Shown here in pieces: positions 4,491 through 53,686 of a stretch of 64,000 nucleotides of DNA. The position numbers and the translations under genes were made by a program. The stretch is from Actinomycetota bacterium. GTDB taxonomy: Bacteria > Actinomycetota > UBA4738 > HRBIN12. Below the pieces are notes generated by a model, which saw nothing but the letters and a program-made list of their open reading frames with translations, had not been told where the DNA came from and searched no databases. The stretch is taken from NCBI GenBank assembly GCA_036505195.1, contig DASXTX010000052.1:1272-65271 (forward strand). Reading direction: 5' to 3'. Position 1 is the first letter of the stretch. Each line of letters begins with the position of its first letter.

Positions 4491-4522
4491 CGAAGCCCGA
4501 GGGTCGGTTGCTAAACTGCGCC

Positions 4523-23217: not shown

Positions 23218-23405
23218 GAGGACCCCATCCCCCTGGCGTCGGCGCGCCCGACGGCCGCCTTGAGCGAGCCGGACCGCCGATCGTCGCAGGGCTCGTCGAA
23301 CGCCGTCGCGCGCGGGCTGAGTGGGCCTGCCGCCCTGACCCTCGTTCCGTTCCGCTCGCTCCCGGCCCCTCCCCCACCGTCTACGCTGATGAGCGTTCGA
23401 CCATC

Positions 23406-23443
23406 GCGAGAGTGGCGGAACGGCAGACGCGCCGGACTTAGGA
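23406..23443 (+). pseudogene. 5' half of tRNA-Leu(TAG), acceptor 5' strand through the anticodon loop; left junction (attL-like) of the island
   Basis: gcgagagtggcggaacggcagacgcgccggacttagga is identical to 46527-46564 of the intact tRNA-Leu, and about 14 nt of upstream flank also match. Identity stops after CTTAGGA. Confidence 0.85.
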
Positions 23444-23510
23444 GCACCAACTCCACGTCCTGCGCAAAAGCGCACAGCCTCAAACCGCAGCCTACTGCTA
23501 CGGGCGGCTA
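23432..23510 (+). repeat. cassette-boundary repeat R1 (fused to the tRNA-Leu 5' half)
   Basis: CCGGACTTAGGAGCACCAACTCCACGTCCTGCGCAAAAGCGCACAGCC...CTACTGCTACGGGCGG. Confidence 0.85.
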
Positions 23511-23596
23511 GCGAGAACCTCGAGGGTCGCACTCAGTCAGTTCCTTCCCAACCTGATTCGAAGTCCGCTCTCTCGTTGCCATGTCATCAACTCTCG

Positions 23597-24082
23597 CTAC
23601 GCGGCCTCCTGAGGCAGTTTGGCGTTGAGCTCGCTGGCGATGTTGTCCGCCCTCACCCGCAGGTTCAGCCACTTCGCCAGATTCGATTTCTGCAGTGCGT
23701 TCAACCGGATGACTCGCCCGCCCTTGGTGACGACGACTATGCCGAAGTAGCCGTAGCTCGAATCGAAGCGCTCGATTTCTGACCACGCCAGACGATGGGT
23801 GGAGAAGTAGTTCACGACCGTGAGTCCCATGTCGTCCGCAATCACTCGGAGCTGAGACTGTCGCCACATGAAGGCCGCGAAACCTCCACTCATCAAGGCC
23901 AGGATTAACCATTCGGCAGCCTCGTCCAGCGAGCCTCGGAAGAGGGACACCGCCGACGTGGCGAGAGCGACGAGCGAGAGGCCGCCCGAAGCGACCGCCA
24001 CCACGAGCGAGCAGATAATGAAGACCAACCGTGGTCGGTAAACCACACCGAACTCCCTATCTCTGCTACGAAGCTTCGGCAC
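23597..24082 (-). CDS. cassette 1: membrane protein with bacterial PH-like domain
   Basis: 161-aa ORF with two N-terminal TM segments, then ..GLTVVNYFSTHRLAWSEIERFDSS..GIVVVTKGGRVIRLNAL.., resembling bacterial PH-domain proteins. Confidence 0.5.
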   Translation of the reverse strand: MPKLRSRDREFGVVYRPRLVFIICSLVVAVASGGLSLVALATSAVSLFRGSLDEAAEWLILALMSGGFAAFMWRQSQLRVIADDMGLTVVNYFSTHRLAWSEIERFDSSYGYFGIVVVTKGGRVIRLNALQKSNLAKWLNLRVRADNIASELNAKLPQEAA

Positions 24083-24169
24083 GGTCTCTCATCGGCTGTA
24101 GCTCGTGACAAGGGGCCTCGCGCAGGCAGGAAGACGACTAGGGGCGCTTTTGCATCGCGCACACACACA

Positions 24170-24250
24170 CCGGACTTAGGAGCGCCAACTCCACGTCCTG
24201 CGCAAGGCGCACATCCTCGACCGAAAGCGTACTGCGACGGGCAGCGTCAG
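24170..24250 (+). repeat. cassette-boundary repeat R2
   Basis: CCGGACTTAGGAGCGCCAACTCCACGTCCTGCGCAAGGCGCACATCC...GCGTACTGCGACGGGCAGCGTCAG. Confidence 0.85.
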
Positions 24251-24345
24251 CACATCTCGGATACCCAGGTCGTATCCACAGGAGCACTGGCGTCCTGCGA
24301 GGCCCTCGTCGACCATCTGCTTCGTGACACCAACAACCCCCACAT

Positions 24346-24945
24346 ATGCCCTTGAAGACACTTGGCTGTCCATCGCCCGATAAGCTGGGCGGGTGGCCGT
24401 CGACACATGTGCGTCGCGTCCTGTGCACGCCCGGGGGTGAGATTTCGGTGGCTCAAGCAATCTTCGTTCCCTTCACCTGGCCGAAGCGCTTGGCTCAGAA
24501 CAACACAAGCGGTTCCAAACTCGTTGAACCAGCAGTGCTCAAGGCGCTACGTATCTCGAACAGCTTGCTCAAGACGGAGCGGCCCGATGGCACACCAGAG
24601 AGAAAGGCCGACGGGAGCGTCGGCCAAGCCGAAATTGAAATCTACGCGCCGCGTCCGGACGCGAAGAATCCGAACCTTCTCAATCGTGCGGACGAGAAGA
24701 ACGGACGCATCCGAGTCAAGTCGGGCATCGACCCGAACTACCGGTGCATCATCATCGCCCTGTTGCTTTCCCAGAGTCAGATTGACAGGTTGAAAGTAGA
24801 GACGAGTCCGGATGAGGTCGTCTTTGGGCTTTGGAACGGAAGCTCTCGCTATTCGCTCAGCCTTCACGACGGGACCCCCCTGACTCGTCCGGTCTGGGAC
24901 CAGTTCCTGAAGAATCAGCCGCCAGCTCGTAAGAGCCGCTTCTGA
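24346..24945 (+). CDS. cassette 2: hypothetical protein
   Basis: 199-aa ORF that fills the cassette. No motif recognised. Start uncertain. Confidence 0.45.
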   Translation: MPLKTLGCPSPDKLGGWPSTHVRRVLCTPGGEISVAQAIFVPFTWPKRLAQNNTSGSKLVEPAVLKALRISNSLLKTERPDGTPERKADGSVGQAEIEIYAPRPDAKNPNLLNRADEKNGRIRVKSGIDPNYRCIIIALLLSQSQIDRLKVETSPDEVVFGLWNGSSRYSLSLHDGTPLTRPVWDQFLKNQPPARKSRF

Positions 24946-24988
24946 CACACACCAGACAGCCGCTGGTTCGATTCCACGAAGTTCGGAC

Positions 24989-25064
24989 ACCGGACTTAGG
25001 AGCACCAACTCCACGTCCTGCGCGAAGCGCACAGCCTTTCGCTTGAAGCGTACTGCGACGGGCA
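24989..25064 (+). repeat. cassette-boundary repeat R3
   Basis: CCGGACTTAGGAGCACCAACTCCACGTCCTGCGCGAAGCGCACAGCC...GCGTACTGCGACGGGCAG. Confidence 0.85.
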
Positions 25065-25128
25065 GGTTCGGAGAAGGGCCCAAGGTCAGGCTCTGTCGCT
25101 AGGTGGCCTCCGACGACTGAAGTCGAGC

Positions 25129-25935
25129 TCAGGAAATGCTGCGACCATCCTCGGCGTCACTGGGCGCGTCGACGGTCCCGGGTCTGGATGGCATCACTCT
25201 TGGCGCTTGCCCGTAGTGTTCCACCGCCTGTTCGACGGCTGAGGCGAACTCGTGGAGGTCAGCCACGAGTAGCCTCGAGAAGAGGGTCTCGCTCGAGGGT
25301 GTGTTTGAGTACGCGTCGGCCGACTTGATGTGCGCGATGTCATCCCGAAGGTCCTTCAGCTCAGCCACCCGCTGCCATACCTCAGCTCTCGCCGTCTCAA
25401 GGCTCTCCTTGCCAAGCGCCGCGGGCAAGGCGACGGTCAGCCGTAACTTGATGCCACGCTGCTCGAGGTCATCACGGGAAAGCGTCTGGCCCTTCCACGA
25501 GACGGTGAGCCCCTCCGGCATCGACTCGTTCGCGTAACTGTCCAGCGCCGCATGCAGCAAGAGCACGGCGGCCATGGCCTCCTCGAAGAAGTCGAGAACG
25601 GCCTGGTCGCTCGTAAAGCGACGGTCCATGAAGGGCTTGATGAACCCTCTTTCCGTTGTCTGGCTTGGCAGCTGGAGCTGAAGGCGCATGGCACGCTTCA
25701 CGCGGGGGCTCGCGGCCGACATGAGCAGACGGGCCGGACTGGGCGCGACGAAACCCACCCGACCGAGTTCGGGATGGGTGACCACCTGGACAACCTGTAT
25801 CTCTTCACCGGCTTCGTGAGCTGGCTGACCCTGCGGCCCAGGCGGTACGTCCTTGGTGATGGTTGTGGACCAACGCCTTCGTCGGTCACCGACCCGCTTG
25901 CCGTTTTTCTTGGTTCGTCGTCTGCGACTTGACAA
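25129..25935 (-). CDS. cassette 3: hypothetical protein with a possible HEPN-type R-x4-H motif
   Basis: 268-aa ORF with a basic N-terminus. The helical C-terminal half contains LKDLRDDIAHIK (R-D-x3-H). Confidence 0.5.
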   Translation of the reverse strand: MSSRRRRTKKNGKRVGDRRRRWSTTITKDVPPGPQGQPAHEAGEEIQVVQVVTHPELGRVGFVAPSPARLLMSAASPRVKRAMRLQLQLPSQTTERGFIKPFMDRRFTSDQAVLDFFEEAMAAVLLLHAALDSYANESMPEGLTVSWKGQTLSRDDLEQRGIKLRLTVALPAALGKESLETARAEVWQRVAELKDLRDDIAHIKSADAYSNTPSSETLFSRLLVADLHEFASAVEQAVEHYGQAPRVMPSRPGTVDAPSDAEDGRSIS

Positions 25936-26041
25936 GCCGTCCCTCTCACGTCTGGGGTCTGCCGGTCGGGCCTGGGACCCCGTGACCTAGTCAGCGCCGT
26001 CCCGGACTGTTCGCAGCGCCGCGGCGATGTCATCGGGCTCA

Positions 26042-26123
26042 TCGGACTTAGGAGCACCAACTCCACGTCCTGCGCAAGGCGCACAGCCTGTGGCTGGCAG
26101 CGTACCGCGACGGGCAGCGTCAG
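26042..26123 (+). repeat. cassette-boundary repeat R4
   Basis: TCGGACTTAGGAGCACCAACTCCACGTCCTGCGCAAGGCGCACAGCCTGTGGCTGGCAGCGTACCGCGACGGGCAGCGTCAG. Confidence 0.85.
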
Positions 26124-26211
26124 ACGACGGCCGAAGGTCTGCGGCTGCACGCATACCTCGCGCGCGGCTGATGCCGCAAGCACACAAGTAGGGAGTGGAG
26201 TAAGGGGTGGG

Positions 26212-26552
26212 CTACCGCTCGTTGCCGTTCGGCTCCTTCAGCCTGGCGAAGGCTTCAGCTATTTCGGTGCCCAGGTCCCGGACGATGGTCGACGACCCCT
26301 CCTCCACGAGTCGCATGAGGACGAGCACCCCCTCTTGGGCGGCGTCAGAAGGCCGGAGCCAGCGAGGTCGCAGACGGATTCCGATGAGTGCGGCAAGCAC
26401 CCAGTAGGCGTCTACAAGCTCTCGGACCGCGGCTTCTTCTCCATCCCGAGCCCTGCCGATAGTGCCACAACGTCTCCGTCGAAGTTGAGGGCGAGCTTCG
26501 TGCCCTCCACGAGCGCCTCGACGAACTCGGATTCGGAGTTCTCCGGTCCCAT
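26212..26552 (-). CDS. cassette 4: two short adjacent ORFs (46 aa at 26412-26552 and 62 aa at 26212-26400), possibly one frameshifted gene
   Basis: MGPENSESEFVEALVEGTKLALNFDGDVVALSAGLGMEKK.. is followed in another frame by ..AVRELVDAYWVLAALIGIRL..LMRLVEEGSSTIVRDLGTEIAEAFARLKEP. Both read like real protein sequence. Confidence 0.3.
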
Positions 26553-26648
26553 CACGTCACCTTACGAGTCGCGGACGAGCGCCTGCGAGTCGTACTGCGA
26601 TGGGTGGTGCTGACCAACGGCACGACGCTTCAAGAGGCCGCGGAAGCA

Positions 26649-26760
26649 CCGGACTTAGGAGCACCAACTCCACATCCTGCGCGAAGCGCACAGCCTTCGG
26701 CTGCAAGCCTACTGCGACGGGCGGCTCACTTGCATCCGCCGACGCGACGGGCAGCGTCAG
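26649..26760 (+). repeat. cassette-boundary repeat R5 (right end duplicated)
   Basis: CCGGACTTAGGAGCACCAACTCCACATCCTGCGCGAAGCGCACAGCCTTCGGCTGCAAGCCTACTGCGACGGGCGG...GACGCGACGGGCAGCGTCAG. Confidence 0.85.
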
Positions 26761-26824
26761 GCATCGGCCAACAGGTCACGGAAGCATGAGGCTCACTGTG
26801 AGCTCGGGTCTCTAGAATCGCGCC

Positions 26825-27163
26825 GTGTCAGGCTCAGTGTCTCCTCGGTGGCTACCAATCACGTACCGCGACTTTTACGACATCCCTCGCGCTGTGCTCG
26901 TCCAGTACGAGGGAGAGACCTACCTACTCGACTGCCCCTTCAATGAGCAGGCCGACGAGTACCCAGACGAGTACCCAGATGACTTCGCCGTGTACCGACT
27001 GACGCGGGAGGTTTCCGAGGCTGCTCGACGGCCAACCTCGTCATGGGTCAATCTCAGGGAGGAAGGAACTCTCCTAGGGCGGGTCCCCGTGAAGCTGGTC
27101 CGATTCGATGAGTCGAGGCGCCGCTTCCTTGACTCGGAGGTCTTCGCACTCCTGGACGAGTGA
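26825..27163 (+). CDS. cassette 5, gene 1: hypothetical protein
   Basis: 112-aa ORF with acidic EYPDEYPDD repeats. No family recognised. Confidence 0.45.
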   Translation: MSGSVSPRWLPITYRDFYDIPRAVLVQYEGETYLLDCPFNEQADEYPDEYPDDFAVYRLTREVSEAARRPTSSWVNLREEGTLLGRVPVKLVRFDESRRRFLDSEVFALLDE

Positions 27164-27224
27164 GCTCATTCTGGGCGTCAAGCATCCCCCGAAGGGTCTG
27201 CCTGGTCTGTACCGTTTCTGAGGG

Positions 27225-27662
27225 ATGGGGGCCCAGGAGCATCGGCCGGGCATCACTTGGAAGGCCTTGGCCGCGACGGAGGAGGCGAGCCTTAGCCTCC
27301 CGGGCTCGACCTTTGTAGATGAGGAGCATCACGACGAAGGCGAGGGGTGGGGCTTCGACGCCAGCCAGCTGAGCGCCATGCTCTTTCGCAGTTATGGAGT
27401 GGATGCTCAGCCGAACGAAATCATGAGCTGGTTTGAGGAACAGCTCACCCTGCGGGGATGGGCGCCCAAAGGTGGCGAGCCATTCAAGCCCGGGGTCTCC
27501 ATCGGGTACAGGTCCTACTCTCGGGAACGGCGCAACTTCTTCCTGAGGGTGTGCGGGCGGGCCGAGGAACGGCCCCCTTGGACCTACTGGCGTTCTTCTT
27601 GGAACGAACTGGGAACCCACTACGACATCACGCTCTCAGAGGCCTCGGCCGACGACGCATAG
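27225..27662 (+). CDS. cassette 5, gene 2: hypothetical protein
   Basis: 145-aa ORF, same strand as gene 1. No family recognised. Confidence 0.45.
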   Translation: MGAQEHRPGITWKALAATEEASLSLPGSTFVDEEHHDEGEGWGFDASQLSAMLFRSYGVDAQPNEIMSWFEEQLTLRGWAPKGGEPFKPGVSIGYRSYSRERRNFFLRVCGRAEERPPWTYWRSSWNELGTHYDITLSEASADDA

Positions 27663-27700
27663 GGCCAGAGGTTCATCGAGGAGAAGCCAGGGGACGAGCA

Positions 27701-27775
27701 CCAGACTTAGGAGCACCAACTCCACGTCCTGCGCAAGGCGCACAGCCTTGGGCGTCGATGCTACGCGACGGGCGG
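27701..27775 (+). repeat. cassette-boundary repeat R6
   Basis: CCAGACTTAGGAGCACCAACTCCACGTCCTGCGCAAGGCGCACAGCC...GCTACGCGACGGGCGG. Confidence 0.85.
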
Positions 27776-27816
27776 ACCCACCACAGGCGGATGAGCGCCG
27801 AACGCCGCAGTGCGTG

Positions 27817-28092
27817 TCAGCCCCGTCTGTCCTGGCGGCGCTCCTTGCGGCGTCGGTGACGACGCATGACACCTACCCCGAACCAGACCAACGCCCCCAG
27901 GAACGCGGAGGCCAGCGTCAGCAACCAGAGCGGCCAGGTGAAGCCCCAGAACAGGAAGTCGAGGCGGACGCTCTCGGTGTTCTGGAACATGAAGATGAGC
28001 AGCAGGCCCACTCCGGTAAGCGACGCGATGGCGCCAGCCCCGAGCCCACGTGCTTGGGCCTGGGAGCCGCTGGTATTGGGACCCTCGCGCAT
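27817..28092 (-). CDS. cassette 6: small LapA-domain (DUF1049-like) membrane protein
   Basis: Start set at MREGPN (28092). ..SVRLDFLFWGFTWPLWLLTLASAFLGALVWFGVGVMRRHRRRKERR is typical of LapA-domain proteins. Confidence 0.55.
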   Translation of the reverse strand: MREGPNTSGSQAQARGLGAGAIASLTGVGLLLIFMFQNTESVRLDFLFWGFTWPLWLLTLASAFLGALVWFGVGVMRRHRRRKERRQDRRG

Positions 28093-28190
28093 GACCACTC
28101 CCCCTTTTGGTGAGTCACGGCCGAGCCCGACTTTACGCCAGCGATTCCCGGTGGAGGAGAGGTAGCATTGCTCTGGAACCGTCCCGTGCA

Positions 28191-28265
28191 CCGGGCTTAG
28201 GAGCACTGCTCAGTGTCCGGCAAGGCGCACTTCCTAGTTCAGACCCTACTGGGAGTGGCAGCGAC
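28191..28265 (+). repeat. cassette-boundary repeat R7 (degenerate)
   Basis: CCGGGCTTAGGAGCACTGCTCAGTGTCCGGCAAGGCGCACTTCC...CTACTGGGAGTGGCAGCGAC. Confidence 0.65.
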
Positions 28266-28314
28266 AGCCGCAGCTAGAGTGGACTCGGTGGGTCGGCTGG
28301 GGTAAGTCTATGAC

Positions 28315-29076
28315 GTGCGCGTTGTCACGTGGAACATGGACCACTGGAAGCATCCCAGGAAGTCGAGTGAGGCGTGGGCTTTTCTCCTCGACGAGCTCCG
28401 TCCCGACATAGCCCTGCTGCAAGAGGCGGTGATTCCAGGTGACGTCCGGCATGACCCCCTGTGGACGCACGCTCGTGAGCGAGGGACCTCCTTGAAGGAG
28501 CTTGCGTGGGGCTCAGCCATACTCTCCCGCGTCGGAACGCCGGCTACGCACCTTGTCATCAGCCCCGAGGACATCGCAAAGAGGGGGGCTGTGCAGGTTG
28601 CGAGTTGCAACATCGCCGGAATCGGCGAGACAACCATAGTGAACATCCATTCACGTCTTGATGACGACAAGCGGGCCGTGCAGAAAGTCATACCGAATCT
28701 CCGCAAGACTTTCGAGATGGTTCTCCCAGCCCTGGGCGAGCGATTCATCGTCGGTGGAGACCTCAACACAGCGAGGTCGCTGGACAGGGTATACGGGCAG
28801 AAGTACGGGCACGGGGACTTCTGGCGCGAAATGGACGCGGGCATCCTGAGAGAGTCGCTCCCTGGCGAGAACGGGGAGCGCCAGTCCTATTGGGGAATCG
28901 CCAAGGGGCCGACCGCGGGCATCCTTCAGGATGACCACCTCTTCTTCGATGCCGAGACATTCAAGCTCGTCAGCGAATCCCGCGTTTGGGACACTCCGCA
29001 AATCCGAGAGCTAAGTGACCATGGTCCAATCGTGGTGGACCTCGACCTCAGCGCCGGTCGAGGCTCAGACACGTGA
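28315..29076 (+). CDS. cassette 7, gene 1: endonuclease/exonuclease/phosphatase (EEP, DNase-I-like) family protein
   Basis: 253-aa ORF: MRVVTWNMDHW.., ..DIALLQE.., ..GGDLN.., ..LSDHGPIVVDL (EEP catalytic motifs). Confidence 0.75.
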   Translation: MRVVTWNMDHWKHPRKSSEAWAFLLDELRPDIALLQEAVIPGDVRHDPLWTHARERGTSLKELAWGSAILSRVGTPATHLVISPEDIAKRGAVQVASCNIAGIGETTIVNIHSRLDDDKRAVQKVIPNLRKTFEMVLPALGERFIVGGDLNTARSLDRVYGQKYGHGDFWREMDAGILRESLPGENGERQSYWGIAKGPTAGILQDDHLFFDAETFKLVSESRVWDTPQIRELSDHGPIVVDLDLSAGRGSDT

Positions 29077-29579
29077 CGAGCGACCAAGCCAGCCCGCTGG
29101 TTGGCGACCTGAGAGACACATGGAACTCCCACTACGCGGAGAATCTCTTCGAACACGTATTCATCGCGGAGGTTCTCCAGGAGTGCGCCTTCGTTCGCAA
29201 GCAGAGGGTGGAGGTCCTTCGAGCAGAGGTTGATGAGTCCGGCTATGACCTCGTTCTCTCGCTGGGCAAGGTCACCCGGCACGTTCAACTGAAGGCCAGC
29301 GCCAGGGGTGGCTCAACCAAGTCCGTCATGGTGAACGAGGCTCTTCAAGAGCACATCGGCGGGTGCGTCGTCTGGATGCTTTGGACCGAGGACGAGGACC
29401 ACCGATGCGACTTCACGTACCGCTTCTTCGACACAGCGGTAAAGCCACTCCCCTCAAAGGTCGCGAAGAACCGGAAGACCAAGGAGCCGAAACCCAACAT
29501 GCGGGTCGTCACTCCGTCGCAGTTCGAGAGAGCAAGCACTGTGGGAGAGCTGGCCTTGCTGCTGTTCGGACCACCATGA
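29073..29579 (+). CDS. cassette 7, gene 2: hypothetical protein, possible PD-(D/E)xK-like fold
   Basis: 168-aa ORF overlapping gene 1 by ATGA. ..EVDESGYDLVLSLGKVTRHVQLK.. looks like a D...(E/Q)-x-K nuclease core. Weak. Confidence 0.45.
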   Translation: MTSDQASPLVGDLRDTWNSHYAENLFEHVFIAEVLQECAFVRKQRVEVLRAEVDESGYDLVLSLGKVTRHVQLKASARGGSTKSVMVNEALQEHIGGCVVWMLWTEDEDHRCDFTYRFFDTAVKPLPSKVAKNRKTKEPKPNMRVVTPSQFERASTVGELALLLFGPP

Positions 29580-29722
29580 CCTCGCCATCTTCCCCCGCAT
29601 AGCGCCACCGGGGGACGCGTTCAGAACCGCCGCAGGGGGGCGATACCTCTTCCCTTCCGGTTGTCTTCCCACTCTCGGCACCGACTAGGCTTCATGTGGT
29701 ACGTGATAGCTGGGAGAGCGCG

Positions 29723-30628
29723 ATGCCAGAGATAACTGCAGAACGGACCGGCGAGTTGATGCGAGGAGTGTTTCGCGTGCTGCTCAATGAGCCCGAAGGG
29801 GTGCAAGCACGTGAGGTTCTCCGGCGAGTTGAGCAAGTCATTCCGCCAACTGAGTTCGAAGCCGCCGATTACCCAAATCGCCCCGGAGTAAGGCGGTACG
29901 AGAAGATAGTCCGCTTCGCCTCTATCCGTCCCGTAAAGGCTGGCTGGCTCGTGAAGGATGGAGGGAAATGGACGCTGACGCCCGAGGGGCGTTCGGCCTA
30001 CGAACGCTATTCCGACCCCGGGGCGTTCACGCGTGAAGCAAGGCGGCTGTATCGGGCATGGAGGCTCGAACAGTCTGACGCTTCCGGCGACGTCGCTGAT
30101 ACAGACGAAGAAGCAGCAGACGAAGTAGCCCCCGACCCGAGAACCACGCTAGAGGAAGCCGAAGAGAACGCTTGGAGCGCCATCGCTGATTATCTGGCCC
30201 GTATGCCACCCTTCGAATTCCAAGACCTAGTGGCGGCGTTGCTGCGTGCGATGGGCTACCACATCGCTTGGACGGCGCCGCCTGGGCCAGACCGAGGCAT
30301 AGACATTGTTGCGTTCCAGGACCCCCTTGGCGCGACCAGTCCTCGAATAAAGGTGCAGGTCAAACGACGAGCAGGACGCATCCCCGCCGACGAACTTCGG
30401 TCGTTTATGGCAGTCCTCGGACAAGATGAGGTGGGTATCTACGTCTCAATCGGCGGGTTCACGAGCGACGCGGAGGTCGAGGCGAGAGGCCAAGAGCGCA
30501 GAAGCGTGACGCTGATTGACATGAGGAGACTCGTGAGTCTGTGGATTGAACATTATGACCGACTGATTGAGGAGGACCGCTCGCTTCTCCCATTGAAACC
30601 CGTTCACTTCCTTACCGCTGCGCTGTGA
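29723..30628 (+). CDS. mrr: cassette 7, gene 3: Mrr-family (type IV) restriction endonuclease
   Basis: Start at MPEITAERT (GGGAGAG upstream). N-terminal Mrr_N-like winged helix (..KIVRFASIRPVKAGWLVKDGGKWTLTPEG). C-terminal FEFQDLVAALLRAMGY..GPDRGIDIVAF..IKVQVKR catalytic core. Confidence 0.8.
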   Translation: MPEITAERTGELMRGVFRVLLNEPEGVQAREVLRRVEQVIPPTEFEAADYPNRPGVRRYEKIVRFASIRPVKAGWLVKDGGKWTLTPEGRSAYERYSDPGAFTREARRLYRAWRLEQSDASGDVADTDEEAADEVAPDPRTTLEEAEENAWSAIADYLARMPPFEFQDLVAALLRAMGYHIAWTAPPGPDRGIDIVAFQDPLGATSPRIKVQVKRRAGRIPADELRSFMAVLGQDEVGIYVSIGGFTSDAEVEARGQERRSVTLIDMRRLVSLWIEHYDRLIEEDRSLLPLKPVHFLTAAL

Positions 30629-30683
30629 TTAAGTCGGAACTCGTGCGATTCGGTCGTAGCCAGGAAGCCCTTCCTTCGAGGCA

Positions 30684-30755
30684 CCGGACTTGGGAGCACC
30701 CGCTCCACGTCCAGCGAGGCGCAGCCTTCGGCGCTGAGCGTACTGCGACGGGCAG
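30684..30755 (+). repeat. cassette-boundary repeat R8
   Basis: CCGGACTTGGGAGCACCCGCTCCACGTCCAGCGAGGCGCAGCC...GCGTACTGCGACGGGCAG. Confidence 0.8.
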
Positions 30756-31025
30756 ATTGCCGGGCATCGGCCGAAGGTCGGTGCTGCGCAAGAGCCGAGC
30801 GCACGGCTCGAGTCACCTCCTCCCCTCTGGTCACGTCACTCCGGAGCTTCGTAGGCACGGGCGGTGCCTCAACGGACCACTTCACGATGGGCCACATCGC
30901 AGACCCGGCCTCAGTCCTTCTCGCCTACGTGCCGACGGTTCTATAGTGGCCAACCCAAAGTTCATGACAGGGCGCCCCGAAATGAAGTCACAAATGCCGG
31001 CGAGGCTGACCAGAGGAAGTGGCTG

Positions 31026-31745
31026 ATGAGGCGGACCGACTTTCGCCTTGCCTCCATTTACATCTCGTGCTCTTTGGTCGAGGGAGCGGTCGACGGTCAG
31101 CAGGCCTATAGAGCCCTTCTGACTCAGTTTGGCTCCGAATACGACGGTGAGTCCTTCTCCCTGCCCGTCCCTTCGGAGGTTCCTGTTCCACCCGAGGTGG
31201 CAACCGCCTCCCTTTCGAGCAAGGACAGAACTCAAACCGCGGAGTTCGGGCGTGGCCGGGTAGCGTTTCGCTGGTCAGCGTCCGACGAGACCAGTCCGAC
31301 GCTCCCCACCGTCGCCACGAGCGTTAGAGAACGGCTTGCCGCCTTCATCGCTCCTGATGCCATAGTGGTCAGTCGCATAGGAGTTGTGGTGACCTTCTTC
31401 GCCGAGGTCCAAAGACCCGGCGAAGCAATCGCTGAAGCGTTCGTCGAGTCGAAGTTCCGTTCTCGTGCACTGGATGACATCGGAGCTCTCGAAATTCACG
31501 TCTTTAGGATGCGTTCACTCCTTGACCGCAACGTCGCAACAAACCACTGGACCCGCGTGCGTTCAGTGAAGTCATCAGGCAACGAATATGACGCCATCAC
31601 GTTCGAGCAGGACTTGAACACGCGAACAGAAGACGCGAGCGAAAGTCGGTTCACTATTGCTGATATCAGCGGTTTCGTTTCGGAACTTGACGAAGTAGTG
31701 GAACGGACGTTCTTGGACTATTGGGGAGACGCGACTGATGAGTGA
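31026..31745 (+). CDS. cassette 8, gene A: hypothetical protein
   Basis: Start set at MRRTDF (ATG 31026, GAGGAAG upstream). 239 aa. No family recognised. Confidence 0.5.
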   Translation: MRRTDFRLASIYISCSLVEGAVDGQQAYRALLTQFGSEYDGESFSLPVPSEVPVPPEVATASLSSKDRTQTAEFGRGRVAFRWSASDETSPTLPTVATSVRERLAAFIAPDAIVVSRIGVVVTFFAEVQRPGEAIAEAFVESKFRSRALDDIGALEIHVFRMRSLLDRNVATNHWTRVRSVKSSGNEYDAITFEQDLNTRTEDASESRFTIADISGFVSELDEVVERTFLDYWGDATDE

Positions 31746-32532
31746 GGAAACGCTCACGAAGTCGTTTACTCCCAGTGACTCGGTCTTCCGGGTAGGGGAC
31801 CTGTCTCCTTCGGGTGGTTTCGAGACGGGAAGACCACAACAGGGGGGTGCAATTGCTCTTTGGCATGCAGTCGTCGAGAGACTGGCCTCAGCGCCGCAGG
31901 ATGAGCTAGCTTCCGCCTATGTGAAGGAACTCTTGCCAGACGTGTTAGTCGAACTGGCGAGTTGGAGTCCCGGACAGACTTTCGCGAGGTTTCAGAGGAT
32001 GTGGTCGTCTACACAGCTTCACCGCTCGAGCGCGACCTGGCCCCTTGCACCTCTCGACTTCGACTATGTGAAGTTGGCCTACCGGGTGTTGCAAATTTCG
32101 CGGCGTGAAGCGCACGAGTGGTGGGACCGAGAGAGCACGTCGACAGCGAGCGACTCAGCGGTTCCGCTTGCGAGAAGTTTTCAGCGTCTTGGACAGCTCG
32201 CCCAGCTCGAGCCCAACTGGGACTCATATGGTGGGTTGCCTTTGGCTCAACCCGCAATGGCTGCGGCAGCAAGCCTCGTGCTTCGAGCGAGGGAGGATAG
32301 AGACGCAACAACGGCGGAGCCCTTTCACATCGCCCCGCTGTCTGATGGCGGCATTCAAGTCGAGTGGCGCAGCTTGAGGGGCGCTCTCGAAGTTGACATC
32401 AGTCCGCGGTCTGAGCTTGGTTTCCTCCTGGTCAGAGGCACAGGTGACTCCAGGACATTCGAGGAAGAGGAAGGTGTCACGCCCGACAGGGTTGTGGGCC
32501 TGCTCGAGTGGCTCCTTTCATCCAACGAGTGA
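31738..32532 (+). CDS. cassette 8, gene B: hypothetical protein
   Basis: 264-aa ORF overlapping gene A by 8 nt. No family recognised. Confidence 0.5.
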   Translation: MSEETLTKSFTPSDSVFRVGDLSPSGGFETGRPQQGGAIALWHAVVERLASAPQDELASAYVKELLPDVLVELASWSPGQTFARFQRMWSSTQLHRSSATWPLAPLDFDYVKLAYRVLQISRREAHEWWDRESTSTASDSAVPLARSFQRLGQLAQLEPNWDSYGGLPLAQPAMAAAASLVLRAREDRDATTAEPFHIAPLSDGGIQVEWRSLRGALEVDISPRSELGFLLVRGTGDSRTFEEEEGVTPDRVVGLLEWLLSSNE

Positions 32533-32900
32533 GTGACCCCGAAGTCGTTTTGGTTACTGAAGCCGACGAGCTCTACCGGAGGCTGCATTGGACCGCCGTT
32601 CGAGATGGCGAAGTCCTGTCTGTTGCGTATAAGAGGTCGGGAAAGCCAGCCTCCACGTTCTCAGTCGACATCGCGAGGCTCACCACACCTGAAACCTCCG
32701 TGGGGCTTGGACCTGCGGGCTCGGGAGTGGGGATTTTGGTGGCGGGAGTGCCGATGGGTTTGGGTTTCAGCGTGACTCACTCCCCAGAGATGGGGAACGA
32801 TGCTCACGCAAATGTCACCGGCGACAATACGAAGCAGAAGTGCAGACTACTTGCCGAAGCGACCAACATCCACATCGAACCCGACGCCCCCGAGCAGTAG
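32529..32900 (+). CDS. cassette 8, gene C: hypothetical protein
   Basis: GTG 32529 overlaps the gene B stop as GTGA. The track ORF starts at 32508. About 123 aa. No family recognised. Confidence 0.45.
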   Translation: MSDPEVVLVTEADELYRRLHWTAVRDGEVLSVAYKRSGKPASTFSVDIARLTTPETSVGLGPAGSGVGILVAGVPMGLGFSVTHSPEMGNDAHANVTGDNTKQKCRLLAEATNIHIEPDAPEQ

Positions 32901-33020
32901 CCCGATTATCGCAGGACGTCTGCCTTCAGCTTCGGGACTGCTTGCAACCACCCCCTAGGCATGGCCCTACAGATGGCCCGCCCTCCCCTCCCCAAGCAGA
33001 CAGGAAGCGCGCACCCAAAC

Positions 33021-33087
33021 CACCTGTTCGAACTCCCTGTCCTGCGCAAGGCGCACGCCTACGGTGCCAGAGGTTCTGCGACGGGCA
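33021..33087 (+). repeat. repeat R9 (degenerate; lacks the CCGGACTTAGGA core)
   Basis: ..GAACTCCCTGTCCTGCGCAAGGCGCACGCC...GGTTCTGCGACGGGCAC keeps the central hairpin and the right-end GCGACGGGCA box only. Confidence 0.6.
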
Positions 33088-33198
33088 CCATGCTGAGGCG
33101 CCGTTGACGGCCGAGCACCAGCGGAAGCCGATGCTCAGGCGTTGGCCTGCACATGCCGACGTTTACCGGAAGGGCATCCTCATGCAAGGGGAACGACA

Positions 33199-34962
33199 AT
33201 GGAGACAGGAGCACCCCCGCGGGACCGAATCTCTGAAGGTACGGGCGTTAACGACGGGGGCAATGAGCCGCGAGGCGGATTTACGGAAGAGGAATACGAC
33301 AATCTGGTTTGGAGCCGCGGCATTCGTCGCGAAGTCGCGGAAGGCGCGTTTCTGCGATACCAGCAAGGCGACATCGGCGGGGTCCTGGCCTTCGACCCAA
33401 CCATTGAGCAACGAGAAGCTGAGGAGTTCATCCGCGGGCTAGTGAACAGAGCCCCAGGCCTAGTTCTACGCCGATGGCCTGTACCGGGAGCCGACGAGTT
33501 CATCACAGCTGAACTTCGCCCAGACTGGCCCGTCTGGACCGGAGCAATGCCGTCCTGGACGCGGCGGCATAGTCAACTCGAAGGCCCGGAGCGGTCGAAG
33601 CACGTCATGGGAGACAAGGTGACGGCGGACGACGTTCGAAGGGCTACGACGACCGATGAATACCAGGAGTGGCGAAAGTGGGCACTCGAGAGGTCCTTGT
33701 GCCTAGAGGAGTTCGGAGCCGACCACTTCGGTGTCGACACGGAGGACGACCACCTCCACTTCGGCCCAATCATCGCGAAGTACCTGTTCCAGGCGGCGCC
33801 GCTCATCACCATCGTCGAGCCGGGAACGCCGCACTCCAATGCCGACATGAACGGCTTCTTCCCAAGGTATTACCACCACGAGCGACGGCACACGCGGAAG
33901 AGGACCAGGTCGTTCAAGCACCCGGCCAAGGCCGAGGCGTTCCTGCGAACCGTGCGGGAGAAGTGGTGGGCAAGGCTCGACGAGGTGGTGGGCGCTCGAC
34001 CGTACAAGGTGACGTGGTGGGAGGGCCACTACTCGGACATGGAAGATAAGCGGGAGCTCGCATTCATGGGCGACGTTCTGCACCCGCACTTCATCCGAGT
34101 GAAGGACCGCGACGTTGTGCTGGCGCGAAGGCTGAGCATTCATCCCATGAGCCGAGAGAGGCTGCAGGAGGTCCACCGGGTGTTCTTCGCGTTGGAGGGT
34201 TGCCTAAAGGAGGCGGCGCTCGTCAGCGCTGGCGAGACAACATTCTCCTGCCCGAGCGTGAGCCTGTGGAACGCCTCGGAGCTCGAGAACTTCGCTAGGC
34301 ATCACCTCGGCGGCAAACGCGTATTCGTCGTCTGCGACAGCGATTGGGACCGAGCGGATGACGACTCGGTGGTTCTGCAAGCCCTCCTTGCGCGCGACCG
34401 ACTGAGGTCCTTCGGCATAGACGCTCATGCCGCGGCACCGCCTCCCGGCGGCAAGGCCTGCGAACACAAGGATAAGAAGCACGGAGTGGATGACCACCTG
34501 GGACCATGTCCCGGAGAAGGGACTGTGGACGACTTGCTGGTCATCGTGCGAGAGGCCGCCCAGGGTCTCACGGAGTGGCTGGCCAACCATCCTCCTCGTG
34601 GCGACACAAGGAATCGCGCCGATGGTCGCAAACGTGATGGCTTCATCCTTCGATGGCTGTCGACGCACGCCGGCAGCGACGGGGTCACGACCGTCTCCGA
34701 CGCAACTATTGCCAAAGCGCTCCAGCCGCAACTCGGCTCGCCGACCACCGACGCTGCTCGGCGGGCCGTAGAGCGCGGTATTCGCTCACTCATCAAGCGA
34801 GGAGCCATCGAGGAGGTCGAGCCGCGCAAAGAGCGGGTCCGTTGGCACTTCCGGAAGGAATACCGTGACTGGTCGGCCAAGCTCCGCGTCGCAGAACAGC
34901 TCCGGGGCCGGCAGGCGGTTGTTCGCTTGGGCGATTTTCCCTCGCCGCCGGCCACGCAATAG
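33199..34962 (+). CDS. large element-borne protein with a Toprim/DUF3854-like region; candidate replication/primase protein
   Basis: Start set at METGAPP (ATG 33199, AAGGGGA upstream). The ORF is open from 33142. ..GKRVFVVCDSDWDRADDDSVVLQALLARDRLRSFG.. looks like a Toprim acidic cluster. The C-terminus is wHTH-like (..IAKAL..AARRAVERGIRSLIKRGAIEEV). Confidence 0.5.
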   Translation: METGAPPRDRISEGTGVNDGGNEPRGGFTEEEYDNLVWSRGIRREVAEGAFLRYQQGDIGGVLAFDPTIEQREAEEFIRGLVNRAPGLVLRRWPVPGADEFITAELRPDWPVWTGAMPSWTRRHSQLEGPERSKHVMGDKVTADDVRRATTTDEYQEWRKWALERSLCLEEFGADHFGVDTEDDHLHFGPIIAKYLFQAAPLITIVEPGTPHSNADMNGFFPRYYHHERRHTRKRTRSFKHPAKAEAFLRTVREKWWARLDEVVGARPYKVTWWEGHYSDMEDKRELAFMGDVLHPHFIRVKDRDVVLARRLSIHPMSRERLQEVHRVFFALEGCLKEAALVSAGETTFSCPSVSLWNASELENFARHHLGGKRVFVVCDSDWDRADDDSVVLQALLARDRLRSFGIDAHAAAPPPGGKACEHKDKKHGVDDHLGPCPGEGTVDDLLVIVREAAQGLTEWLANHPPRGDTRNRADGRKRDGFILRWLSTHAGSDGVTTVSDATIAKALQPQLGSPTTDAARRAVERGIRSLIKRGAIEEVEPRKERVRWHFRKEYRDWSAKLRVAEQLRGRQAVVRLGDFPSPPATQ

Positions 34963-36852: not shown

Positions 36853-37500
36853 TCAATTGCCCACCGACCGACGGGGAATGAACATCGCTCGCACAGTGGA
36901 CGGGTACCAACGTCGTCCGCCCTGAGCGGTTGGGACGCCATCCCCGTTCAAGGCCTGGGCGATGGCCGTCCACCCTAGCCCGTTCGCTCTCATACTCTCC
37001 ATTCGCTTCCAGACGTCCTCCGGCGTTGTGACTGGGCGGCCGAGCCTCACTCCCTGAGCCTTCTTGATGGCCAGCGCGACCTTCGTCCGTTCCACGATGA
37101 GGTCGCGCTCGAGCTCGGCGAACACCCCGGCTATGCGAGCCATGGCCTTGCCATGCGGCGTTGTTGTGTCCACACGTAGGTCCAGTGTCACGATTGCCCA
37201 CCCCTCGCGGACGCTACGGTCCATCAGTTCGACTAAGTCGCGGAGGGAACGCGACAAGCGGTCAATCCTCACCGCAACGAGCGCATCGGCCTGGCCCAGC
37301 TCAACGGCTTTGAGAGCTGCCACCAAACCGGGTCGGTCTTTTCGCGACCTCCCTGACGCGACATCCTCACAGATGGCAATCAGGGACCAACCACGCCGCT
37401 TTGCGTCTTCACGAAGGGCCATGCGTTGCGCCTCTAGCCCAATGCCCGAGTTGCTTTGGTCTTCCGTAGAGACGCGCGCATACCCAACTGTCGTAGTCAA
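36853..37500 (-). CDS. serine recombinase (resolvase/invertase family)
   Basis: Start set at TTG 37500 (AAGAGG 6 nt upstream), giving LTTTVGYARVSTEDQ.. The ORF is open to 37632. Motifs ..LVAVRIDRLSRS.. and a C-terminal HTH (..GLGWTAIAQALN). Confidence 0.8.
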   Translation of the reverse strand: MTTTVGYARVSTEDQSNSGIGLEAQRMALREDAKRRGWSLIAICEDVASGRSRKDRPGLVAALKAVELGQADALVAVRIDRLSRSLRDLVELMDRSVREGWAIVTLDLRVDTTTPHGKAMARIAGVFAELERDLIVERTKVALAIKKAQGVRLGRPVTTPEDVWKRMESMRANGLGWTAIAQALNGDGVPTAQGGRRWYPSTVRAMFIPRRSVGN

Positions 37501-37549
37501 GACAGACCTCTTTCGGCGTGCTCCGAAGCACAGACAGGTTGTTCGGCGC

Positions 37550-37594
37550 ATTCCGCAATAGCCAGACAGGGCGTATTCCGCAATAGCCAGACAG
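37550..37594 (+). repeat. two direct copies of ATTCCGCAATAGCCAGACAG (25-bp register) upstream of the serine recombinase gene
   Basis: Copies at 37550-37569 and 37575-37594, read directly. Located in the divergent intergenic region. Confidence 0.8.
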
Positions 37595-37609
37595 AAGGAA
37601 GGAGAAACG

Positions 37610-37831
37610 ATGTCATCTAACGGTCGTCGCATTGGTACACCGACGCATTTGGAGTTGTCCCCCGAAGCTCGCGCAACATACGCCAGGAGTCGAGACGAAG
37701 AAGAGGCCAGATGGCGACGCCAATCCGGCGCCGCTCGAACGCGGCGTGCGTCCGGCGAGGAACTTAGGCGAATTCGAGGCGGCCACTGGCGCCCCGACTC
37801 TGGAAAGAACTCTGCATCAGCGAGAGTGTAA
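37610..37831 (+). CDS. small hypothetical protein, divergent from the serine recombinase
   Basis: 73-aa ORF preceded by a strong AAGGAGA RBS. Confidence 0.35.
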   Translation: MSSNGRRIGTPTHLELSPEARATYARSRDEEEARWRRQSGAARTRRASGEELRRIRGGHWRPDSGKNSASARV

Positions 37832-38440: not shown

Positions 38441-40975
38441 TCACGCGATTGGTGGCTGAACGAAGACCATCTCAAGTTCGCTGAGGTCGGACGCATGGAG
38501 CTTCTCGAATTCCTTCTGGGGAACCTTCATGTACGTCCAGGGTTGCCCCGTCAAAAGGGTCGCATTCTCGCACCATATGCTCGCGGCCCTATCCTTGTGC
38601 GCAACTTCGATGTCTTCACGGCCCTTGGTCTCGACGAGGAAGTGTTGGTCAACAGACTTCTTCACGACGAAGTCCGGCTCGTAATACCGGAGGCTTCCCA
38701 CGGAGTCGGTGTACTCGATAGCGAAGCCGAACTGTCTGGGGAGCTTCGCAAAGGACATGACGTCTTTGGCGTTTTCCAAGAAGTTCGCGAAGTCCCGCTC
38801 GAATTGGTTATCGCAGGGGACGAGGTTGTATACGCACTTCTTAGCATCGAAGGTCGGACGCGAATAGGGGAAGGGTGGTGTCTCAGACAGCTTCCGCCCC
38901 TCGCTCAACAGCGTCGGAGACAGTTCCTCGATGACCAACCCACGGAGTGCCTGGGAGAACGCCTTGACGGTTACGTATTGGGCGACGCTTGTTGAGATTG
39001 CACGAATCATCGCCGGCGAGTCGAGCCTCACTGTCTTGCCAAATGCCTTCGTCTCCAGGAACTCGCGCACCTTGGGGGCCAACGCCGAGAACTGCGACGG
39101 CAATTTCACATCGTTCGCCACCCGCCTGGCGTAGTAGCTGATGACTTCCTCAGCCGTCTGCGGCTCGGGAATCGTGTAGTCCCGCTCCACGAGCTTCTGG
39201 AGGCTGATGATGTCGTAGCCCTCGTACTTGAACTTCTGAGCAGCCGCATCTCCTTCACTCTGTGGAAACACGGGGCTCTGGAACCTGGAGACATCGAGAC
39301 CCGCAATCTCCTCAGCCAGCGTCTTCTTGCGAGAGAGGATTGGACTCAGGACGGGAATTGCGATGTCATGTTCCATCTTCTCTTCATCGGGGAAGATGGT
39401 CAGGATGACGAGCTTGTCCCTCTTAAGGTCGAACTCTTGGACCGCGATGTCTTCGTCCTTCTCAAGCTGGTCGATGAACTTGAGGAACGGGCTATTGCCG
39501 ATGACATCGACCCGCTCGACGTAGGCGGACGAGAGACCCCTGAACATCAGCCGCAACCCACGACCAATGGCTTGCTCTGGAAGGATGTTGGCCGAAGCCG
39601 TGAAAGGCCTCAGCCCAACAACCACCGTCACGCTCTGCACATCCCATCCCTCACGAAGCATCAAGACGGAGACGATGGCATTGACCGGGCTCTCGCCTTC
39701 ATCAACCTCCCGAGCAACAGCCCTGGCTTTGTCGAGGTCTTTCCTCGAGACCTCACCCTGATTGTTTGTGTGAATGATGAGTAGCTTGTCGCCGCCGAAC
39801 TCCTGTGGGTACTTCGTCTGCAGGTACCCGCCCACATCTTCGGCGTCAACCGTCGTGTTCATCATCACGAACATGATTGGCTTCTTCTTGACTGGCTTGA
39901 GTTGGTCGCGGTATTCGCGCCACCGCTCGACACCAGCAGTCAAGTAGGCCCTGTACCTCACGCTGGCAACATCTGATGGCTGGTCCTTCATGCCAGCCGC
40001 CACGCCCTTCATGGGGCGCTTGACGACGCTGTCAAGGATGGCTTGTTTCAACGGGTAGTCAAAAACTGTCCAGGTGAACAGGCCACCCTTCGAGTACCTC
40101 GGCGTCGCCGAGAAGTCGAGTTGCGAGGAGATGCCGGGGACAAGTTCGGCACTGAGGGTCCGAATCACCTTGTTCCACTCGTTCTCTTCATCGTGAGTGT
40201 GATGTGCCTCATCGTTCACAACCAAGCATGGCTCGCCACGGGCGAGGATGCGCTCACGGAAGTCCTCGCCCTCTATGAGCTGTGCCGGCGGCTTTGGACC
40301 GAGTACGGCTGTGAGAGCATCAGGCTCGCTCCCATCGCCGTTAGCATCCTTCCTGGCGTACAACTGTTGGATGTTGGTCAGGTACAACGCGCCCTGCGAT
40401 GAAGGCCCCTCGGCGTCGCCACGCATGAAGAAACTCATGTCCCAGAACACCGAGAGCGCAGGAGGGACCAGAGGGTCTGTTCGGAACACACGCCCGCCTT
40501 CGAAATCCAGCCTGAGCCGCTCGAATACGATGACGTTAGGTGCCATCACGAGGAACGTCTTAGCAAAGTCGTCTCGTCCCTCCGCCACCGCGTTGAAGTA
40601 GTGCCAGGCGACGGCGAGTGCCATCACCTTCGTCTTGCCGCTCCCCGTCGCCATCTTGATGCAGTACCTGGCGAAGTTGTCACGTTGAAGAAGTGCGATG
40701 TCAGCTTGGCCAGTGGCGAACGTTTCGAGCAGGGTCCTGTGGCGACGCACGGCGACAACTTCGTAGAGATAGATGAGCGTCTCGATGGCCTCGCGCTGGA
40801 AATGGTGGTACCGGAACGTTGAGCCAGATGGGAGGCGATGTTCGGTTCCGAACCAGTGCTTGAGGAGCGTTCGCGTCGTGTCTGTTACGCCCCTATAACC
40901 GTTCGCCCGCCACTCTTCCACCGCTAGCCTGATGGCTGGTACGCAGGGCGCTGTCGTGACCTTTGCTTCGAGCAA
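38441..40975 (-). CDS. res: Type III restriction enzyme, Res subunit (SF2 helicase + C-terminal PD-(D/E)xK nuclease)
   Basis: 844-aa ORF with Walker A MATGSGKTKV, DEAH box VVNDEAHHT, and a C-terminal YEPDFVV...FLVETKG nuclease motif. Directly downstream of mod. Confidence 0.85.
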   Translation of the reverse strand: MLEAKVTTAPCVPAIRLAVEEWRANGYRGVTDTTRTLLKHWFGTEHRLPSGSTFRYHHFQREAIETLIYLYEVVAVRRHRTLLETFATGQADIALLQRDNFARYCIKMATGSGKTKVMALAVAWHYFNAVAEGRDDFAKTFLVMAPNVIVFERLRLDFEGGRVFRTDPLVPPALSVFWDMSFFMRGDAEGPSSQGALYLTNIQQLYARKDANGDGSEPDALTAVLGPKPPAQLIEGEDFRERILARGEPCLVVNDEAHHTHDEENEWNKVIRTLSAELVPGISSQLDFSATPRYSKGGLFTWTVFDYPLKQAILDSVVKRPMKGVAAGMKDQPSDVASVRYRAYLTAGVERWREYRDQLKPVKKKPIMFVMMNTTVDAEDVGGYLQTKYPQEFGGDKLLIIHTNNQGEVSRKDLDKARAVAREVDEGESPVNAIVSVLMLREGWDVQSVTVVVGLRPFTASANILPEQAIGRGLRLMFRGLSSAYVERVDVIGNSPFLKFIDQLEKDEDIAVQEFDLKRDKLVILTIFPDEEKMEHDIAIPVLSPILSRKKTLAEEIAGLDVSRFQSPVFPQSEGDAAAQKFKYEGYDIISLQKLVERDYTIPEPQTAEEVISYYARRVANDVKLPSQFSALAPKVREFLETKAFGKTVRLDSPAMIRAISTSVAQYVTVKAFSQALRGLVIEELSPTLLSEGRKLSETPPFPYSRPTFDAKKCVYNLVPCDNQFERDFANFLENAKDVMSFAKLPRQFGFAIEYTDSVGSLRYYEPDFVVKKSVDQHFLVETKGREDIEVAHKDRAASIWCENATLLTGQPWTYMKVPQKEFEKLHASDLSELEMVFVQPPIA

Positions 40976-53669: not shown

Positions 53670-53686
53670 GCGGATCGACGGCCTAA

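Follow-up and report, generated by a model that had tools for sequence, protein, structure and literature searches.

An island in a tRNA-Leu gene

We analysed a stretch of 64,000 nucleotides (nt) from the assembly of an Actinomycetota bacterium (contig DASXTX010000052.1), referred to below as the window, and describe an array of short repeats and small gene units that lies there in a leucine tRNA gene, together with its candidate integrase. Positions 23406-46611 form a single 23.2-kb island, whose left part (23430-33092) is the repeat array. A repeat finder and an alignment gave nine copies of a ~80-nt repeat, all on the plus strand. From left to right, the island comprises a 5' half of tRNA-Leu(TAG) fused to repeat 1 (site type H), eight small units, a 13.5-kb integrase-bearing unit, and the intact tRNA-Leu(TAG) (site type T), the only intact copy that ARAGORN found. 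At this right end the tRNA stands beside a small tyrosine recombinase gene, which diverges from it at a distance of ~70-105 nt; the original prediction, made from the letters alone, had given this island context little weight. The GC content between 23.4 and 46.6 kb is 0.57-0.66, versus ~0.70 in the surroundings.

The left chromosomal flank was found at 94-95% identity in five other contigs (including L145, L179, L183 and L197), and the match runs right up to H. Therefore, H is chromosomal, and the 5' half and promoter of T were supplied by the island. Because the element brings with it a promoter and a copy of the tRNA 5' half, the gene is intact at the right end and the chromosomal 5' half has been displaced to H. 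Judged from its sequence, an integrative element occupies 23406-46611; it sits in the anticodon loop of tRNA-Leu(TAG) and replaces promoter and 5' half. As in other tRNA-targeting islands, there is an integrase beside the tRNA, a partial tRNA repeat at the far end and a deviant GC content. It is the 5' half that is duplicated, which is the less common orientation among tRNA islands; elements that replace the 5' and not the 3' part of a tRNA are rare yet known (PMC6563490).

The repeat and its core

The original prediction had listed nine repeats in the same orientation, opening with a piece of the tRNA and sharply bounded on the left. All nine are present, 1-3 nt from where they had been placed, and their link to the tRNA was confirmed in each respect. 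The first 12 nt (CCGGACTTAGGA) are the 5' strand of the anticodon stem plus the loop of tRNA-Leu(TAG); copy 1 is fused in register to the 5' half of this tRNA, of which positions 1-38 precede it at 100% identity; and similarity between copies begins at CA followed by CCGGA. The same boundary holds for the 107 unique internal copies gathered across all loci (described below), where the columns upstream reach at most 50% consensus, which is background, and jump to at least 90% at the core. Every window copy opens with (C)ACCGGACTTAGGA; copies 7-9 are more diverged, and the core is lost in copy 9. All nine are confined to a single block of 9.7 kb, and the rest of the 64 kb contains none. A 34-nt core pattern gave 6 matches at up to 3 mismatches, where shuffled sequences give an expectation of 0.00.

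The consensus of 126 unique copies reads CACCGGACTTAGGAGCACCAACTCCACGTCCGGCAAGGCGCACAGCC, ~15 variable nt, and then GTACTGCGACGGGCAG, and the conserved blocks of the arm to the right of the core are GTCCGGCAAGGCGCACAGCC and GTACTGCGACGGGCAG. The left part of the site is a nested imperfect palindrome (CCGGAC TTA GGAG, 4-6 variable nt, CTCC AC GTCCGG), with CCGGACTTAGGAG and CTCCACGTCCGG separated by 4 to 6 nt in the core region. The two anticodon-stem halves, CCGGA and TCCGG, are spaced 21 nt apart in the repeat versus 7 in the tRNA. Right of the core (e.g. 25002-25068), the arm consists of a 14-nt insertion, TCC(T/G)G, which corresponds to the anticodon 3' stem, and two short hairpins; the short GC-rich hairpins of the arm are GCGC AAG GCGC and CAGCC TTCG GCTG. 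The arm may have arisen by decay of a tRNA 3' half; it was not matched by the Rfam tRNA model, and Rfam found only the tRNA itself.

The hairpins and the conserved blocks around a variable stretch could also belong to a functional RNA or a transcription signal (terminator, insulator or small RNA) rather than to a recombination site. We consider this very unlikely, since the copies fold no better than shuffled sequences (z -1.2 to -1.9) and neither covariation nor significant structure appeared when RNAalifold was run on 9 and on 126 copies, when single-stranded DNA was folded or when the variable stretch was folded copy by copy. The hairpin of the variable stretch is missing in many copies, no Rfam family matched, and the repeat keeps a constant orientation while that of the genes is mixed. 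In addition, the first 12 nt are the crossover core of the tRNA, and units are exchanged exactly at the repeat. On the same folding results, an attC-like folded site was rejected as unsupported.

Related arrays in soil and sediment metagenomes

A strict pattern scan of soil and sediment metagenome contigs gave 58 loci, and a profile built from the nine window copies then identified 163 repeats in 65 sequences, namely the window, the 58 scanned loci and six of ten contigs reached through integrase homologues. Most of these comparative data are short-read metagenome contigs. A loose pattern scan of genome contigs returned at least 119 chance loci, and none of the matches listed contained a repeat according to nhmmer; viral contigs gave single chance matches only with this pattern.

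The repeats were co-oriented within every one of the 65 sequences, and 43 loci carried two or more. A dispersed repeat of the repetitive extragenic palindrome or miniature inverted-repeat transposable element type, which the original prediction had named as the finding that would speak against it, is ruled out: the copies are never scattered or inverted in the window or in the 65 sequences, and none lies outside the array in the 64 kb.

The architecture recurs as well. The order of H, internal repeats, integrase on the opposite strand and T was found in L128, L129/130, L165/192 and others, and 19 unique repeat copies were fused to the tRNA half. L128 and L129-131 have integrases that are 87-89% identical, a matching architecture with two repeats, and different cargo. 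In L165/L192, seven repeats are followed by the integrase alone, directly adjoining the last repeat, while L185 contains ten repeats in 9.2 kb. The genes flanking L128 (murI, a metallo-beta-lactamase-fold gene, rph and rdgB) and those flanking the L137/L207 islands (phoH, ybeY, corC ... recO, uppS, glyS) stand in orders that we take to be actinobacterial synteny. This presumed synteny, together with a GC content of 65-70%, suggests that the array hosts are soil Actinomycetota.

Units as discrete and exchanged modules

We recovered 98 inter-repeat units of 178-2546 bp (median 823 bp), which correspond to 81 non-redundant units at 98% identity and to 64 families. One gene was present in 65 of the 81 units, and unit genes were found on both strands relative to the repeat. 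The cargo includes methyltransferases, GNAT acetyltransferases, a chromate transporter, SnoaL-like proteins, a short-chain dehydrogenase, an APH(6)-type kinase, Mrr, ArsR-type regulators and many unknowns, and few of these genes match defence models.

Five of the window units recur in other arrays at 89-95% identity with unrelated neighbours. Unit c0 corresponds to L160 c1 (92%), being first in the window and second in L160; c2 to L137 c2 (94.8%), among unrelated neighbours; c3 to L151 c0 (92%), with both neighbours different; c5 to L154 c0 (94%); and the second half of c4 to the whole single-gene unit L165 c0 (89%). The c2 protein is also 97% identical to P0074, a protein encoded in the related L201-203 arrays. 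In pairwise comparisons, unit homology is bounded by the core CACCGGACTTAGGA, since it begins at CACCGGA and ends at the next core, and the arm right of the core travels with the unit on its right. As far as the compared sequences go, the units are thus discrete and recur in varied contexts and orders.

In L170, family F8 is directly followed by F24, whereas in L185 F24 comes first and F8 further along; deletion alone is therefore not enough. The orthologous locus is hypervariable: the five contigs that share the left flank of the window carry one repeat, versus nine in the window, as expected from the prediction of different cassette content at the orthologous tRNA-Leu. The window and L137 have just one cassette in common, with the first genes of their integrase units 83% identical at the amino acid level. 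The prediction that the array arose by repeated insertion is supported by the units with unrelated neighbours and by the one pair in opposite order. Under that prediction, the cassette adjoining the tRNA half would be the newest.

The H and T junctions place the exchange point at or left of ...CTTAGGA, and the shared units place it inside CACCGGACTTAGGAGCA; strands may thus be exchanged either in the anticodon loop or near the variable stretch. Polymorphisms narrow the crossover no further, and the two single informative cases point in opposite ways. Units L141 c2 and L185 c0 have identical arms and different variable stretches.

The units could instead be remnants of full integrase-bearing elements that entered the tRNA one after another and later lost their integrase and tRNA copy, with array differences resulting only from deletions and homologous recombination. 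Such accretion is the textbook route to tandems of cis-mobilizable elements (CIMEs) (PMC5704250), and part of it is visible here: L150, L155 and L190 have internal copies that include the whole tRNA 5' half, in some cases after an integrase stub, and N-terminal integrase stubs lie beside the tRNA in L167, L173, L183 and L197; therefore, integrase-type units also accrete and decay. As the whole explanation of the arrays, we find it improbable. The 107 unique internal junctions begin at an identical nucleotide without a trace of tRNA half or integrase, which random deletions do not fit; a given unit keeps its ends in unrelated contexts; and the order reversal between L170 and L185 goes beyond deletion.

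Gene content of the island and its neighbourhood

The features of the island are listed in Table 1. In agreement with the original prediction, the eight inter-repeat intervals hold one to three genes each and no recombinase, and of the cargo families it had named, Pfam bore out PH, LapA, EEP nuclease and Mrr; the HEPN-motif and PD-ExK-like proteins are putative. Unit c4 (26647-27698) contains a faint remnant of the 3' block of the arm near 27180-27200 and probably consists of two units fused through decay of the repeat between them.

Table 1. Sites, repeats, units and genes of the tRNA-Leu island in the window
Feature	Position	Strand	Evidence or remark
Promoter-like region upstream of H	~23366-23405		Resembles the upstream region of the intact gene over ~40 nt
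Displaced chromosomal tRNA-Leu(TAG) 5' half (positions 1-38)	23406-23443	+	100% match; left end, site type H
Repeat 1	23430-23510	+	Core CGCCGGACTTAGGA plus ~65-nt arm; fused to tRNA half
Unit c0, bacterial PH domain protein	23597-24082	-	bPH_6, E 8.6e-7
Repeat 2	24168-24248	+
Unit c1 gene	24346-24945	+	No family match
Repeat 3	24988-25068	+	Arm near-identical to arm of homologous L137 unit
Unit c2 gene, 268 aa	25129-25935	-	No family match
Repeat 4	26040-26121	+
Unit c3, candidate gene	26335-26613	+	Uncertain call
Repeat 5	26647-26726	+
Unit c4, two genes (26825-27163, 27225-27662)	26825-27662	+
Repeat 6	27699-27776	+
Unit c5, LapA-domain membrane protein	27817-28206	-	LapA_dom, E 3.9e-12
Repeat 7	28189-28264	+	Diverged
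Unit c6, three genes: endonuclease/exonuclease/phosphatase (EEP) nuclease/phosphatase, unknown, Mrr-type restriction endonuclease	28315-30628	+	Exo_endo_phos, E 8.8e-9; Mrr_cat, E 7e-23
Repeat 8	30682-30758	+
Unit c7, three overlapping co-oriented genes	30864-32900	+	No family match
Repeat 9	33012-33092	+	Arm conserved, core decayed; left end of integrase-bearing unit
Cargo of integrase-bearing unit	33093-45695		Genes listed separately; includes two unknowns
606-aa unknown	33142-34962	+	83% identical to first gene after last repeat in L137
Resolvase-type serine recombinase	36853-37632	-
Type III restriction subunit (Res)	38441-40975	-
Type III methylase (Mod)	41016-42971	-
Small Xer-like tyrosine recombinase, candidate cassette and island integrase	45696-46460	-	PF00589, E 1.4e-25
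Intact tRNA-Leu(TAG)	46527-46611	+	ARAGORN; right end, site type T

The unknown proteins of the integrase-bearing unit had no match in Pfam, NCBIfam or PHROGs. The 606-aa protein bears a VVCDSDWD motif, and it may have a maintenance or replication function for the platform.

A second island lies 3' of the same tRNA-Leu (46612-56431) and ends in an exact 52-nt copy of tRNA positions 32-83 (56380-56431). It contains a 2164-aa RHS-repeat toxin (47175-53669) and a Kelch-repeat protein (54870-56084), and no integrase was seen in it. Both islands flanking the tRNA begin at the anticodon loop, and partial tRNA 3' copies akin to that at 56380-56431 were also found in L167, L179 and L182. Finally, tRNA-His(GTG) and tRNA-Lys(CTT) are adjacent at 4417-4599, with no repeats or islands evident there.

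The candidate integrase

The tyrosine recombinase at the right end of the island is 241-254 aa long; its true start is probably codon 11 or 14, which gives ~241 aa. The best solved relatives are archaeal XerA (4a8e, E 5e-18), XerD and IntI4, with which the R, H-x-x-R and H...Y motifs align, while Gp33 (PDB 5vfz) matched weakly. All Xer models of NCBIfam, including XerC (91 bits versus a cut-off of 335) and XerD (84 versus 330), gave scores far below the family thresholds. We found 73 relatives at E 1e-10 or better, nearly all metagenomic, ~240 aa long and in many cases fragments. The family is small and distinct, with 26 cluster representatives at E 1e-30 or better of 1.84 billion, and no relative above 35% identity was found among cultivated phages and plasmids. 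Homologues of 240-244 aa occupy the same position in L128, L129 and L165, and across the loci compared the arrays appear constantly linked to this integrase family. The predicted protein is a small arm-less Xer-like enzyme of phage or island ancestry.

Several relatives lie in other contexts. Those of 60% (L198) and 47% (L200) identity are in phage-like contigs, with the integrase at 10001 in each, and with genes for DNA polymerase A, primase, DnaB, lysin and a giant tail-type protein. In L200, the integrase is preceded at 250 nt by a complete tRNA-Gln(CTG). In L198, a tRNA 3' fragment is co-oriented with the integrase and followed by GCGACGGGCGG, a sequence that the arm of the repeat also contains in its conserved 3' block. 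The integrases of L132, L133 and L199 (55-57% identity, ~9665-10723) lie divergently beside tRNA-Arg(ACG), in an arrangement like that of the window; no tRNA-Arg half or cassette array was found within the contig parts covered, which stop before the far end.

The cassettes could be mobile through another enzyme, such as the serine recombinase of the island, a recombinase encoded elsewhere or the host Xer. The island does contain a resolvase-type gene, with similar genes in the corresponding units of L132 and L201, many arrays are without an intact tyrosine recombinase, and the arrays anchored in deoC (see below) adjoin a different member of the family. We judge this quite unlikely, as the resolvase is missing from L128, L129 and L165, which bear arrays, and the core of the repeat is the exact sequence at which island and tRNA are joined, that joining being the job of the adjacent tyrosine recombinase.

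A lineage anchored in deoC

In L137, L138, L201-203 and L207, the island carries 6-7 repeats and is bounded by deoC on one side and by a ~58-nt copy of the 3' end of that gene on the other. These islands adjoin an integrase of 42-44% identity (L137, 9935-10720; L201, 16717-17469; L207, 4600-5424), tRNA-Leu is absent from them, and a 74% homologue of the window integrase is truncated. On this evidence, the lineage looks like a swap of the integration module, and arrays are therefore not always anchored in a tRNA. The original prediction of a tRNA gene as anchor thus holds for the window and the tRNA-Leu loci and does not extend to this one lineage.

Proposed mechanism

The best explanation, which we regard as likely, is an integrative element inserted in the tRNA whose integrase recombines sites that share a core and in this way builds and shuffles the cassette array. 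The putative integrase would act on sites sharing CCGGACTTAGGA, of which there would be three types: the tRNA itself; the element's own site, made of a copy of the tRNA 5' half, the core and a ~65-nt arm; and the cassette sites, made of CA, core and arm only. As cassette sites are without the tRNA 5' half, harmless insertion would be possible only at H or at other cassette sites and not at the live tRNA. Insertion, excision between direct repeats and re-insertion would then give a shuffled array of small units in the space from H to the integrase. If the whole island were excised (H x T), the tRNA would be restored, and the resulting circle would read integrase, tRNA-half site and then the cassettes from the first onwards, which is an integron-like topology. 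Catalysis by this enzyme, circles as the intermediate, cleavage at positions mapped only to CACCGGACTTAGGAGCA and double-stranded substrates are all inferred.

Several observations weigh against this explanation. The integrase is truncated or missing in many arrays (L150, L154, L158, L167, L173, L179, L183, L184 and L197), and its activity there would have to be in trans, or past. The arrays in deoC lie beside another integrase, so that the link between integrase and array is not absolute. Right of the core, the cassette site is without the inverted half-site of the tRNA at normal spacing, and binding by a simple recombinase is therefore hard to explain. We found neither circular contigs nor empty junctions in the sequences searched. 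Homologous recombination between 80-bp repeats could explain deletions, and repeats of this length can yield chimeric joins in short-read assemblies; counter to such chimeras, identical arrays were assembled independently (L165=L192=L176; L137=L138; L201=L202=L203).

Comparison with known systems

To our knowledge, integrons stand alone as a well-established system for collecting and shuffling single-gene cassettes through site-specific recombination, and we know of essentially none in Actinomycetota. The arrays resemble them in having an Xer-like tyrosine recombinase, a fixed primary site, and small, mostly single-gene cassettes without an integrase and with one site each. Cassette content and order vary between close relatives, units are discrete across arrays, the accessory cargo is mixed (GNATs, methyltransferases, small unknowns and some defence genes), and there are integrase-less arrays comparable to clusters of attC sites lacking integron integrases (CALINs).

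A classical integron or CALIN that had been overlooked would account for a small-cassette array and for a tyrosine recombinase of the broad Xer/IntI group, and yet we consider it hardly credible. The integron integrase model TIGR02249 scored 71.5 bits versus a cut-off of 265, over residues 184-243 only, and PRK15417 scored 47.9 versus 435; the protein is ~80 aa short for the IntI-specific insertion (IntI has about 320 aa). No RYYYAAC/GTTRRRY boxes are present in the consensus of 126 unique copies, the site gives no sign of an attC-like folded hairpin, and the genes are in mixed orientation (52 on the minus strand versus 47 on the plus strand), all in line with the differences from integrons that the original prediction had listed. 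Its statement that no IntI is adjacent needs qualification: the enzyme has no IntI features, but a dedicated integrase does exist, which would stand beside the array in the excised circle and lies next to the last repeat in L165/L192. Because genes are in both orientations, a common promoter is unlikely, unlike in integrons. A further difference is that the present core is a tRNA anticodon stem-loop and that an integrative island, which restores the tRNA 5' half, serves as the platform. As far as can be told from the sequence, the arrays are not integrons with regard to integrase, site and gene orientation, and their functional logic matches.

Other elements re-use tRNA sites. Insertions in turn at such a site give tandem units split by partial tRNA copies, and integrase-less units rely on the enzyme of a neighbour (PMC5704250; bioRxiv 10.1101/2020.12.28.424599; PMC6563490). 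CIME and accretion tandems, the tycheposon islands of Prochlorococcus and the ssrA islands of Dehalococcoides are alike in re-using a tRNA or tmRNA site. The last case is one reportedly described for Dehalococcoides. As in CIMEs, the present units are integrase-less and bounded by the attachment sites of a neighbouring integrase-bearing element. In contrast, those elements are decayed or whole, several to tens of kb in length and usually few, whereas the median length of the present units is 0.8 kb, a single array can contain at least 10 of them, the left arm is minimal at ~7 nt, and the units are exchanged as discrete modules. Remnants of decay are absent from the 107 unique internal copies and present in a minority (L150, L155 and L190).

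The dif modules of Acinetobacter plasmids and the integrative mobile elements exploiting Xer (IMEX) are small accessory-gene modules bounded by short Xer sites and heavily shuffled between replicons (PMC13141974, PMC6449649). Those systems use host XerC/XerD and 28-bp dif-like sites of the 11-6-11 layout on plasmids, whereas the arrays have a dedicated small recombinase, ~80-bp sites that are all direct, and a chromosomal tRNA anchor. The sites of dif modules alternate in orientation. Elements directed at the 5' portion of a tRNA gene (Zhao and Williams 2002) are similar in that they replace this portion and not the 3' one. The arm-less phage integrases, such as Brujita Int, are similarly small and without an arm-binding domain. 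We know of no cassette array carried by either of these two groups. Full-text literature searches found no description of such an architecture, as the original prediction had also stated.

If the proposed explanation is true, cassette platforms evolve convergently from ordinary tRNA-targeting integrases, and the novel features would be an integrase of another lineage and sites that derive from a tRNA and are apparently double-stranded. The 80-bp site would be a marker with which to mine the accessory gene pool of uncultivated soil bacteria, and a small arm-less integrase with a defined core of 12-17 bp would be a possible tool. The finding bears on the open question of cassette origin: since integrase-type units and minimal cassettes coexist in the arrays, intermediates of this origin may be observable.

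Finally, we incline slightly towards the more specific view that this is an independently evolved, integron-like capture system of uncultivated high-GC soil bacteria, in which an Xer-like integrase would use a tRNA-Leu anticodon stem-loop as primary site and single-gene cassettes would be inserted, excised and reshuffled on a mobile platform that rebuilds the tRNA. Compared with the systems above, the array looks like an undescribed counterpart of the integron in soil bacteria.

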